From a virus (lineage: Duplodnaviria > Heunggongvirae > Uroviricota > Caudoviricetes), in the IMG/VR virus record IMGVR_UViG_2684623171_000005: a DNA stretch of 64,000 bases; one strand, written 5' to 3'. This document shows, in pieces, positions 3,001-9,000 of this stretch (position 1 is its first letter; every line of letters begins with the position of its first letter). A program made the position numbers.

Positions 3001-6000
3001 GGGTCCATCTCCATCTCTTGTCCTATTGCCATTCTTGCGTCAGTGTCGTCAGTGTCGTCAGCGGCGAAGCATAAAACAGCCCACGCACCCATTGTTTTAA
3101 AAAGAACTGCAATTGGCTGTGGTTTTACTGAATTTGCGTTAGCGCGAAAATCACAAATCGCACTTTCATGAAATTCCATATATCACCTCAAATAAGTGGT
3201 TTGCTGCCTAATTTCATTTTCTGGCGACCAACACAAGTCATCTTGCTGTCAGTTGTTTGGATTTACGGTAGCCTGCCGCGTAAAGAGCTACATTTGGAAG
3301 ACAAGTTGAGCCTTCATATTTTCTGGTCAACGTTGTCAGTGTTATTACTTCTGCTCTCATTGCTGGTTTGCGTTTGCATTGTAAGACCACTCGTGATGGG
3401 GTTGGCCTGTGTAGTTTGTCGGAGCTAATCGCCTCCTGACTTTGCAGGTTTGCGCGACGAGCTCTACGGCGAGAAGCTGCGGTGCCTTTAAATTCTGTTT
3501 TTCTGGACATAGATTCCTCCCGAATAAACTTTGGCGATGCAATCTCGAAGCTCCTCCTGAGACGGTTGCTTCGGCATTGCATCCCACAGCTTATGTGGTT
3601 GGGTGATCTGGCTTTTCAGCCACGTAGTCGAGAGTCGACGTTGTTTAAAGAGCCTGCCAGTCTGTTCCATTTGGCTTCCAGCGTCCTGCTGATGGTTAAA
3701 TAGTACGATATGTACTTCACTTGGTCAATACAATTTGTTCTAAAACGGGGCGTTTTTTTACAACGCTTTGTATTTAATAGTATTGTTTTTTAGCGTGGGT
3801 GTATTGCCTCGGCGATGTAAGGAGAGATCAGAATTGCGTTGTTTAGTGAGTTGTATCTATTTATTTTCCAATAAATACAATTGGTTATGTGTTTTTTTGG
3901 GCGAGAGGAAAAGAAAACCCGGCATGGAGGCCGGGTTGATGATTAGCGGTGTGGCCTTGAGCGATAATGCTCACACACATGTTCAAGATTTCCATGCCTT
4001 ATCCGTTCATAGGCATTCACATGAACTTCTCGATCGAATTGGTCATTCAAATTGTATGTAGACATCTGTGTTTTCTCATATTGGCGGCAGCCCTACAACC
4101 GCTTGAAAAAATGTACCAGACGCGCTAAGGTTACATCGCAAATATTGTGTACCTTAACAAGGGCTCCTTTTGGAGGCTCTGGTTAAACAGCATCAATGTC
4201 GGACTGGGGAGTTGGACATTGTGCTGAATGCTTTTGCATTATTGAGGCCGAACGTAAACCTTCAGAATTGAAGAGATGCGTTCGGCTTCTTCGTTTGTGA
4301 TATCGTTAGGAATGCCTTTAATCGTTACTGTAACCCCTGATTCAGGTCGAAGAACTACTGGAAGATCATAGGTATGAAGTGCATTAGCCTTGCCTTCGAC
4401 TTTTGTTGGTTCGCCAGTCAAATCTTTTTCCTCACTGGATTCTTTGTCAATCGGAGTGTATGGGATTTCTTCACCAGACTGGAAAGCTACAAACTTTTTG
4501 ATTGCACTTTCCATGCGGCTTTTATATGCAGTAATGCTGCTGTCGCTAGGCTTCGGCTCAGTTGCGTTGATGTATCGCTCGGCAAGCTCATTCACATCAA
4601 GCTGAGTAACATCACCCATTTCCTCTTCTTGGACTACCGTTAAGAGGCGAGCGGATGAGTTTTTTAAATTTCGAGCGGTGGCCTCCTTCATTATGTTCAG
4701 CGACATAAGCTCTTCAAGGAAGTCCTTGAATGCCTGCACGCTAACGTTTGACTTTGCCATTTGCTCTCTCTCTAAGTTATTGACTCAGATCGAGTTTATC
4801 CAGGAATTGATTTGCATGCAAGACTCAAGTCTTGAGAATTTCCGTTCAAGATCCACTCTCAATAAAAAAGGCCGCACCTCTGCGACCTTTCATCTCCTAA
4901 ATCTCTTTTCTCTTACCTAAAGAAACAGCAGGCTGGGTCAGCCCTAACAACTTCAAGTGCATCGGTCAGAGAAAGCTCCGTGCTATACAGGTGTTATTTC
5001 ATATCTTTTTGCATCCAATAAATTTTCCATCTGTCCAGAGAGCGGATGCACTTGATTCTTGTTGATGGCAGGACGTTTTTTCACCTGCCTCACCCTGCCA
5101 TACAGGACGCTGCTCACCGATATCTATCGTCCGGTCATTGATGTTATAGACAATATCCAGATCATTACGGATATACTCAGATGGCCTTATGCTTTCAATG
5201 AATAGATGAACTTCTTTTTGACCGCTTGATACTCATGGCCATTAAACTCCATCTATCCTCTTTACCCAAACGTCTCTTCAGGCCATTGGCTGGCGATAAC
5301 TTTCCCCACAACGGAACAACTCTCATTGCATGGGATCATTGGATATTGCGGGTTTAGTGGTTGTAGAAACACCTGACCGCTATCCCTGATCAGTTTCTTG
5401 AAGGTAAATTCATCACCACCAAGTCTGGCTATGCAGAAATCGCCGGGCTCAACAGCTTGCTCAGGGTCAACCAGAATTAACATCCCGTCAGGAAAACTAG
5501 GTTTGGAACCTGTTGGTGCGGTCATTGAGTTACCTTCAACCTCAAGCCAGAATGCAGAGTCACTGGCTTTTTTGGTTGTGCTTACCAATCTCTCCGCATC
5601 ACCTTTGGTAAAGGTTCTGAGTTCTGGAGAGAACATCCCAGCCTGAACATGAGAAAAAACAGGGTACTCATATTGTTTTTTAACTGGGGCCGATGAGTAT
5701 TCGCCAACAGGTGAAAATGTCCCGTCGTGGTTGAATGATATGTTATCAATACCAAGGTATTTAAACACCACACCAATATCACTAAGAGATGGATGACGAG
5801 ATCCGCGCAACCAGTGTCCAATTCCACCCTGCGTCATACCTAGCTCTTCGGCTAACTTCTCTTGAGTTATGCCGAGCTCTTTCATTCTGGATCTAGCCAG
5901 TTCATACCATTTCATTTTCATGTCCTTATTATTACGCTCTGTACTGGAACCATCCATGCACAATGTGTATTTTTACTTGTATTTGAGAAGTACATATTGT

Positions 6001-9000
6001 ATTTTTTATTCGTGGTTACTATGGAGGGCATATGAGCAACCTACGAAAATATCGAGAGTCACTGAATATCTCTCAAACAACACTTGCTAAGGCAGTTGGA
6101 TGCACACAGGGAGCTATCGGACATTGGGAATCTGGTCGTCGCTTCCCAGACCTTAAAACATGCCGTGCTCTTGTTGCGTGTCTAAACAAGTTAGGCGCAA
6201 AAGTAAGTCTTGATGACGTGTTCCCGCCGGAGCACAAAGCCGCTTAATAAGCGGAGCCGCTCTTTGTAACAACGGACATTCGTCCTACGTCGCTGAAAAG
6301 CGAGTCCCAAGATATCTGACCAACTAAGGCCATATGCGTTTCCACGCATACCTTTCAACTAACTATTCACTATTGGAAATCTTAAGAAATGGAACGAACA
6401 AGTTACAGCAAACTATCACAGCGCGACGTTGATCGCGCAGAAACAGATTTACTCATCAACCTGTCAACGCTTACACAGCGCGGTCTGGCAAAGATGATTG
6501 GCTGTCATGAATCGAAGATAAGCAGAACGGACTGGCGGTTTATTGCTTCGGTCTTGTGTGCTTTCGGAATGGCATCAGACATCAGTCCGATTAGCAGGGC
6601 TTTTAAGTATGCGCTTGATGAAATCACAAAGAAAAAATCCCCGGCTGCCACCGAGGATTTTAAGCAAATTGATATGCAATTCTGAGGGAATTACTGGATC
6701 AATCCACAGGAGTAATTATGACAAAACGTCGTAAGAAATACCAGGAAAAAGAAGAGATTCGACACCCTGATTCACCTGAGGGATTAGTGGTAGCCGCAGC
6801 AAATAACAGGGCGTTCGCAGAGCGCCTTGTTGGTGTTTACAGACTAGCCAAAGCAGGAGTGAAACATGGGCGTCGTTAAGTTAGCTGATTACAGGCCTCA
6901 ACTGGAGGTCGTGGAGCATCGCGTGGCAGATACCGAAGATGGTTTCATGCGCGTTGCTAACGAGATTACCGACAGTCTGCTGATGGCTGATTTAACCGTC
7001 CGGCAGTTGAAGGTGATGCTCGCTATCATGCGCAAGACATACGGATTCAATAAGCCGATGGATCGACTCACAAACACGCAGATAGCAGCCATGACAGGTA
7101 TTCATCACACTCATGTTTGCGCTGCCAAGCGCCAGCTTATTGAGCGTAAATTCCTCATTGCTGATGGCGTGAAAATCGGAGTGAACAAGGTGGTTTCTCA
7201 GTGGATTAGCCAGGACAGCTTAACATTAGCTAAAACAGCTAATAAAACATTAGCCAAGTCGGCTAATGGGTATAAGCCAAGTCAGCTAAACACAAAAGAC
7301 AATATACAAAAGACAATAAATACAAATACCCCCTTACCCCCTAACGGGGATGGCGATGGGCAGGTTAAACCTGAACGTCGCAAGGCAGAACGAATCGACT
7401 ACGAATCCTTCCTGAACGCCTACAACACCGAAGTCGGTGACAGACTTCCACACGCTGTTGCGGTCAACGAGAAACGAAAACGCCGCCTGAAGAAAATTAT
7501 CCCGCAACTGAAAACGCCAAACGTGGACGGTTTCAGAGCGTATGTCAGGGCGTTTGTGCATCAGGCCAAGCCGTTTTACTTCGGAGACAACGACACGGGC
7601 TGGACGGCAGATTTTGATTACCTGCTGAGGGAAGATTCGTTAACGGGAGTTCGGGAAGGGAAGTTTGCAGACAGGGGGATTGCATGAGACAGGATATCGA
7701 AGCTAGCGTTATCGGTGGCCTGCTGATTGGTGGATTAACTCCAACCGCCAGTGACGTTCTGGCAACGCTGGAGCCGGAAGCGTTTTCAATTCCGCTCTAC
7801 CGTAAAGCCTTCGAGGTTATTCGCAAGCAGGCGAGAAACAGAAACCTAATCGATGCGCTGATGGTTGCCGAGGCGTGCGGAGAGGAGCATTTCACGTCAA
7901 TCCTGATGACCAGCAAAAACTGCCCGAGTGCCGCAAACCTGAAGGGATATGCCGGAATGGTCGCGGATAACTATCACCGCCGTCTGGTGCTGGAAATCAT
8001 GGATGAAATGCGTGAACCAATCCAAAGCGGAACCATCGACGCATCGAGTCAGGCGATGGATGAACTTGTAAAGCGTCTTTCAGCCATCAGAAAGCCCCGT
8101 GACGAGGTTAAACCTGTACGGTTAGGGGAAATCATCACTGACTACACTGACACGCTTGACAGGCGTCTGAGGAACGGAGAAGAGTCAGATACCCTGAAGA
8201 CCGGAATCGAAGAGCTTGACGCTATCACTGGAGGGATGAACGCAGAAGACCTGGTGATTATCGCCGCTCGTCCTGGTATGGGGAAAACCGAACTGGCGCT
8301 GAAGATTGCCGAAGGTGTGGCAAGCCGCGTTATTCCTGGTTCTGACGTCCGGCGCGGGGTATTGATTTTCTCAATGGAAATGAGCGCATTGCAGATTGCA
8401 GAGCGAAGCATTGCCAACGCCGGGAGGATGTCGGTTAGCGTACTGCGAAATCCTGCATCGATGGATGACGAGGGCTGGGCACGTGTTGCTAACGGCATGA
8501 GTCAGCTTGCAGATTTGGATGTATGGGTAGTCGATGCTTCGCGGTTATCGGTCGAAGAAATACGCTCAATCGCAGAACGGCATAAGCAGGAAAATCCAAA
8601 CCTGTCACTCATCATGGCGGATTATCTTGGCCTGATTGAGAAGCCGAAAGCAGACCGCAACGACCTCGCAATTGCTCACATCTCCGGAAGCCTGAAGGCG
8701 ATGGCGAAAGACCTGAAAACACCGGTTATCTCCCTGAGTCAGCTTTCGCGCGATGTTGAGAAGCGACCAAACAAACGCCCGACAAACGCAGATTTGCGTG
8801 ATTCAGGAAGCATTGAACAGGACGCAGACTCAATCATCATGCTCTATCGGGAAGCGGTATATGATGAGAACAGTAGCGCCGCGCCATTTGCTGAAATCAT
8901 CGTGACGAAAAACCGTTTTGGCTCGCTTGGTACAGTTTACCAGCGGTTCTGTAACGGACACTTTGTTGCATGTGACCAGGATGAAGCCAGACAGATTTGC

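Follow-up and report, generated by a model that had tools for sequence, protein, structure and literature searches.

The cI repressor of a lambdoid Shiga-toxin prophage: a lambda-type C-terminal domain on a VT2-Sakai-type DNA-binding domain

Head/tail mosaicism in a phage repressor was stated in 2008 in the genome paper of epsilon34, whose gp46, like the repressors of Oslo and 103203_sal5, joins a head of the L / VT2-Sa / Nil2 family to a protease tail like that of lambda and HK97, VT2-Sa being among its closest N-terminal relatives (PMC2629481). The cloned cI of prophage Sp5 (VT2-Sakai), a protein of 217 amino acids, blocks zygotic induction of Sp5 and works in strains that have the cognate prophage, though not in EDL933, a carrier of 933W; Sp5 lysogens lyse with mitomycin C (PMC3355084). 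In published comparisons, Sp5 cI is 19-24% identical to 933W cI and 61% identical overall to lambda cI. Here we describe the cI gene (5262..5915, minus strand) in a 64,000-nucleotide stretch of Caudoviricetes DNA, IMG/VR record IMGVR_UViG_2684623171_000005, which we call the window. The window is a lambdoid Shiga-toxin prophage, and 95% of its first 25 kb aligns with phages 1717 and Stx2a_F349 at 100% identity. Records AP000422 and AP005153/AP005154 already annotate the gene, its likeness to lambda cI and the operators, and the mosaic is in print; nothing reported here is new biologically.

We are highly confident that this cI is the immunity repressor of the VT2-Sakai (Sp5) / 1717 / Stx2 II group of lambdoid Shiga-toxin phages, set in a standard lambda-style switch. 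The 1.1 kb around it is 100% identical to phages 1717, YYZ-2008, phi330 and Stx2a_WGPS4/6 and 99.9% identical to the Stx1-converting phage AP005153, to Stx2 II and to the PA-series Sakai-type Stx2a phages, and at least 80% of this region is present in 62 phage records. The 217-residue protein is identical to the cI of 1717 (ACI43117) and of AP005153, and one residue off the AP000422 VT2-Sakai record (BAA94122). Indeed, the window has the cI, cro and operator sequences of the VT2-Sakai/Sp5 immunity group, and VT2-Sakai/Sp5, 1717 and AP005153/AP005154 share its operators, promoters, nut sites, cro and N, only the annotated start codons disagreeing. It does not belong to imm lambda: the head is 30% identical to that of lambda, lambda DNA similarity is undetectable in 5673..6031, and the operators are of the AGTAC type, not of the TATCACCGC type. 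As expected of such a switch, cI and cro diverge with three sites between 5915 and 6032, three more sites lie at 3701..3775 upstream of N, and they overlap the promoters PL, PR and PRM. The allele is widespread: among 5426 complete E. coli genomes, 776, Nissle 1917 included, have the head together with the right operator region (OR), and 1211 have the lambda-type tail.

The protein consists of an HTH_3 domain (Pfam, residues 11-58, E = 1.9e-10) and a Peptidase_S24 domain (PF00717, residues 87-209, E = 1.1e-28). The lambda-type block (5262..5672, minus strand) runs from the linker at lambda Y101 to the stop codon, and includes the Ala-Gly cleavage site, the Ser/Lys protease and the dimer/tetramer domain. 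In a PDB sequence search with the 219-residue MKMKW form, whose aligned residues 84-219 are 82-217 of the 217-residue protein, the last 136 residues were identical to lambda cI (NP_040628, Y101-G236) at 135 positions, the sole natural change being W129L. The lambda cI chains matching the whole tail were 3bdn, 8gmu, 2hnf, 1kca and 1f39, in which the remaining mismatches are engineered. The cleavage site HVQA92-G93MF is identical to that at lambda A111-G112, Ser130 and Lys173 align with lambda S149 and K192, all of these are invariant in the alignment, and every lambda cooperativity residue is kept. The original prediction that the C-terminal ~135 residues match lambda cI and form a lambda-type self-cleavage module is thus borne out for the protein, although the description "lambda-identical" does not hold for the DNA.

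When we compared the tail with lambda (NC_001416) codon by codon, we found 29 nucleotide differences in 411, making 28 synonymous codons and one non-synonymous codon; the same comparison with HK97 gave 21 synonymous differences and one non-synonymous difference. Over window 5266..5672 the DNA has 93.4% identity with lambda and 94.6% with HK97; for the copy in the O157 prophage Sp1 the DNA identity is 93.9%. Since the protein is identical at 135 of 136 positions but the DNA at only 93%, the tail block, some 6-7% diverged in DNA, appears to be an old exchange held by very strong purifying selection and not a copy of lambda's own gene. The near-perfect protein identity could also be taken to mean that the tail was acquired very recently from lambda, or from a co-resident lambda-immunity prophage, so that the gene would be a new hybrid and not an established lineage; a possible donor exists in the lambda-immunity cI of Sp1 in O157:H7 chromosomes. 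We regard this as extremely improbable, given the 28 synonymous differences and the DNA identities just listed. Moreover, in tail DNA the phages with this immunity group together (95-100% identity), apart from the lambda-immunity phages (lambda, HK97, HK106, HK542 and mEp234) at 91-95%, and this head with its OR is found in the 776 genomes counted above.

The N-terminal HTH_3 DNA-binding domain (5673..5915, minus strand) is of the VT2-Sa / L / epsilon34 type and is without a lambda DNA match. By BLASTP, residues 1-81 share 15 identities over 50 positions (30%; E = 8e-8 for the pair) with lambda residues 1-101, centred on the helix-turn-helix, and the lambda N-terminal domain is among the best PDB matches of the head (E = 4.5e-4 to 3e-3), with the 434 repressor at 0.24-1.5 and P22 C2 at 0.4-0.5. 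On the strength of this amino acid match and of the PDB ranking, unaccompanied by lambda DNA similarity, the head is homologous to that of lambda in fold (HTH_3 / lambda-repressor-like) but clearly a different allele. It had been predicted that the N-terminal ~80 residues are unrelated to lambda cI; they are distinct, as alignment confirmed, but related. Neither lambda's N-terminal arm nor the first half of its helix 1 is present in the head, whose recognition helix differs from lambda GQSGVGALFNG. The different operator specificity proposed originally is borne out. The closest head is that of E. coli phage 683R2, of the same type (96% identity), followed by ST64T/L c2 (about 55%) and by Oslo and 103203_sal5 (51%).

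The junction between the two domains is sharp. Lambda similarity starts exactly at the TAT codon of lambda Tyr101 (window 5672) and continues to the stop, while every codon upstream differs, so that the boundary at 5672/5673 is sharp to within one codon, ten residues ahead of the Ala-Gly cleavage site. In addition, the relatives rank differently for head and tail: identity to the window cI is 51% in the head and 80% in the tail for Oslo, about 55% and 46% for ST64T/L, and 30% and 99% for lambda. Because DNA identity steps from 93% to none within a codon and the head and tail identities are incongruent, the gene is, judged from such comparisons, a recombinant in which a head of the L / epsilon34 / VT2-Sa family was joined in the inter-domain linker to a tail of the lambda/HK97 family. 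It follows from the same incongruence that this family of heads is combined with three classes of tail, and the lambda tail with at least two classes of head. Alternatively, head and tail could have descended together from a lambda cI ancestor, the head evolving faster under diversifying selection for new immunity. Rapid divergence is indeed expected of immunity determinants, and the head is still homologous to that of lambda, with lambda among its top PDB matches. However, neither the fall in DNA similarity within a single codon nor the incongruent relationships fit common descent, and we find this account hardly credible. A recombinant origin also suits the surroundings of the gene, where the PRM-operon terminator sits in a second patch of lambda-like DNA (window 3822..3937, 87.5%) and, between the two patches, the rexAB slot is filled by an unrelated ORF (open reading frame) of 173 amino acids. 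Exchange at functional boundaries is the usual lambdoid pattern.

The locus keeps the lambda gene order N - OL - moron - cI - OR - cro - cII, where OL is the left operator region, and nearly its OL-OR distance (2287 bp here, 2407 bp in lambda). It differs from lambda in the head, in the AGTAC-type operators and their spacing (25-33 bp here, 20-24 bp in lambda), in a Cro of HTH_3 type instead of the lambda Cro fold, and in the ORF that takes the place of rexAB. Epsilon34 gp46 and its relatives are alike in combining a lambda/HK97-like tail with this family of heads, and their operators too have a TAC-N5-GTA core and are arranged three plus three; however, their heads are 51% and their tails about 80% identical to those of the window cI, and their half-sites are WTAC as against AGTAC here. 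Epsilon34 is probably heteroimmune to the window phage. Chimeras engineered in the Hochschild laboratory, in which 434 or P22 heads were placed on lambda tails, reportedly kept dimerisation and cooperative binding while taking their specificity from the head. Those were laboratory constructs, whereas the window cI is a natural allele.

The GenBank record of VT2-Sakai lists six putative 17-bp operators, PL, PR, PRM, nutL, nutR and a terminator, and all of them map unchanged onto the window. On the right, putative OR1 (AAGTACATATTGTATTT, 5988..6004, plus strand) overlaps the spacer and -10 of PR and is identical to the VT2-Sakai annotation, its core being kept in relatives; putative OR2 (ATGCACAATGTGTATTT, 5956..5972, plus strand) abuts the -35 of PRM, and putative OR3 (TATTACGCTCTGTACTG, 5930..5946, plus strand) overlaps the PRM spacer and -10, both again matching the annotation and the relatives. 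On the left, putative OL1 (AAGTACATATCGTACTA on the minus strand, 3701..3717) lies inside PL and corresponds to the VT2-Sakai annotation, and putative OL2 (3726..3742) and OL3 (3759..3775), also on the minus strand, are found both in the annotation and in relatives. PL (TTGACC-17-TACTAT, 3700..3728, minus strand) was recovered by a consensus scan as well as by annotation. Putative PR (TTGTAT-17-TATTTT, 5977..6005, plus strand) was mapped from the annotation and falls below the threshold of that scan, and putative PRM (TGGATG-17-AATAAT, 5928..5956, minus strand) was mapped from AP000422. The dyad and the 11-mer that had first drawn attention to the locus were exactly where predicted: AGTACGATATGTACT at 3702..3716 and GAAGTACATAT at 5987..5997, with the reverse complement of GAAGTACATAT at 3709..3719, are the cores of OL1 and OR1 of this annotated set. 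An alternative OR2 with lambda-like spacing, the middle site AAATACAAGTAAAAATA (around 5972..5988), was rejected, having a poor right half and not being kept in 683R2.

Taken by itself, the 11-mer common to both intergenic regions is weak evidence, for about 2% of Markov-1 simulations yielded one (P about 0.02), and AGTAC-N5-GTACT with at most 2 mismatches occurs 18 times in the window, barely above the 12.4 expected. It could thus be argued that these dyads are promoter-associated or chance AT-rich repeats and that the true operators are other sequences, the more so as we found no cognate binding data in the literature. However, four of the 18 dyads cluster in the two control regions beside cI, which together span roughly 185 bp, and the sites overlap PL, PR and PRM as lambda operators do. 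The shorter core TAC-N5-GTA occurs 14 times against 6.0 expected, a number reached in 0 of 100 shuffles, and the 12 half-sites give wA(G/A)TAC(A/G), with A at position 5, C at position 6 and a purine at position 7 in all 12 and A at position 2 in 11. What seems to us the best support for the operators comes from comparison with relatives. In 683R2 as well as in the more diverged Oslo and sal5, TAC-N5-GTA cores stand in the same three-plus-three layout with spacings of about 32-33 and 25-26 bp, while spacers and flanks vary, and so does the AAATAC that lies between the sites in the PR -35 region. The epsilon34 genome paper, which named VT2-Sa as an N-terminal relative, independently proposed WTACRAWWTGTAT as the epsilon34 operator (PMC2629481). 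A chance origin of the dyads is therefore, in our view, very unlikely, and we infer that the six sites are bound by the cognate repressor. The original observation stands and its interpretation is supported, with four corrections.

In the working that we propose, cI dimers would bind through the HTH_3 head to the six operators (consensus wAGTACa-N3-tGTACTw), three over PL and three over PR and PRM. Repressor at OL1 and OL2 and at OR1 and OR2 would occlude PL and PR, keeping N and cro off. OR2 lies against the PRM -35 and OR3 overlaps PRM; the repressor probably autoregulates cI, and may activate PRM. The lambda-type tail should provide dimerisation, pairwise cooperativity and possibly looping between OL and OR. 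RecA-stimulated self-cleavage would be expected from the identity of the tail to that of lambda, and would take place at Ala92-Gly93 through Ser130 and Lys173.

Several observations weigh against this scheme. The operators are spaced 32 and 26 bp from centre to centre in OR and 25 and 33 bp in OL, so that the pairwise cooperativity known from lambda, with its 20-24 bp, cannot be taken for granted. Dyad symmetry is poor in OR2 and OL3, where 4 and 3 pairs out of 8, respectively, are symmetric. The operators are called putative in every record, and we found no published footprint or gel shift of the cognate repressor on them. In the sole gel shifts that we found on these operators the protein was lambda cI, and its binding was weak (apparent Kd 3.7-6.4 uM, compared with 0.2-3 uM on its own sites; PMC10742460). 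The W129L change falls in the cleavage-site region, where it may have an effect. Finally, induction may have a route besides RecA cleavage, because the window encodes an antirepressor-type protein (16285..17049, plus strand; Pfam ORF6N and P22_AR_C), which would inactivate cI by another means, without proteolysis. Within this gene a 30-bp unit (TTGCGGGTTACTTTAAGTAACTCACAAAAT) is repeated in tandem and in frame, in 3.1 copies (16477..16570), and each unit bears the palindrome GTTACTTTAAGTAAC.

The start of cI is annotated differently among records, with 217 amino acids in those of VT2-Sakai and 1717 and 231 in AP005153 and in a RefSeq O157:H7 genome. The longest form of the ORF is 5262..5963, and the conserved start gives a protein that begins MKWYEL. 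We rejected both longer forms, that from the TTG at 5963 (233 amino acids) and the 231-residue MDGSS... form, because the upstream extension overlaps OR3 and PRM, because the two differences from 683R2 within it are both non-synonymous, and because Oslo and sal5 have an in-frame TGA 8 codons upstream of the first ATG. The annotated -10 of PRM (AATAAT, 5933..5928) would put the start of the transcript near 5921, at the first ATG (MKMKW), and the PRM message may, from this placement, be leaderless like that of lambda.

Around cI lie the divergent cro, a cII homologue and replication genes of the P22/HK97 type, and the N antiterminator gene lies to the left. The cro gene (6032..6247, plus strand) encodes a 71-residue HTH_3 protein with 35% identity to cI over 62 residues, and its recognition helix is TQGAIGHW where that of cI is TQGGIGHW, a near-equality that is expected of two proteins competing for shared operators. 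Cro also matches PDB entry 28tn, deposited as 'lambda repressor-like protein', with E = 4.5e-17 over residues 1-69. The 173-residue ORF of the rexA/rexB slot (4239..4760, minus strand; H0093 of VT2-Sakai) has no Pfam match and in the prophage is probably co-expressed with cI; it adjoins the repressor in Salmonella phage Oslo too. The Rho-independent terminator of the PRM operon is at 3909..3937 (minus strand), within the second lambda-like patch. N itself (3238..3510, minus strand; 90 amino acids) is the first gene of the PL operon, and nutL maps to 3614..3654 from the VT2-Sakai annotation. A 60-residue ORF at 3488..3670 (minus strand), which is listed as a hypothetical protein in a RefSeq genome record, overlaps nutL and the start of N, has no family match in Pfam and is probably not a gene.

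Chromosomes of O157:H7 also carry a second repressor with almost the same tail. Prophage Sp1/CP-933H at thrW encodes a 237-residue cI that is identical to lambda cI at 233 of 237 positions and lies beside a lambda-like OR; in the thrW prophage of O157:H7 NE1127 (L010 2499..3513), Cro is identical to that of lambda and OR nearly so. Sakai, the source strain of Sp5, carries the Sp1 cI copy (NC_002695.2, around 302351), and we verified both repressors directly on the same chromosome in NZ_CP062160.1, NZ_CP032791.1 and NZ_CP038366.1. By subtraction (620 + 776 - 1211), roughly 185 genomes would have both types, provided that every such head sits on a lambda-type tail. The tails of the Sp1 and Sp5-type repressors differ at three positions only and the heads are different. 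Since nearly the same dimerisation tail is thus present in one cell on different heads, the two proteins could conceivably form mixed dimers inactive on both operator sets, or mixed tetramers, which would couple the Stx2 prophage to a cryptic prophage. We found no published work on mixed dimers of Sp1 and Sp5 cI, and think it rather unlikely that they form.

The window cI gene is a textbook example, and a clean one, of recombination in the linker between two domains, and its tail, with one amino acid change against 28 synonymous ones, shows the strength of the constraint on the lambda tail. If mixed dimers or tetramers did form in O157:H7, both the stability of the Stx2 prophage and its induction threshold would be coupled to a cryptic prophage. 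As the repressor sets the induction threshold of the Stx2 prophage, and therefore toxin output, the type of repressor carried matters for the virulence of enterohaemorrhagic E. coli.

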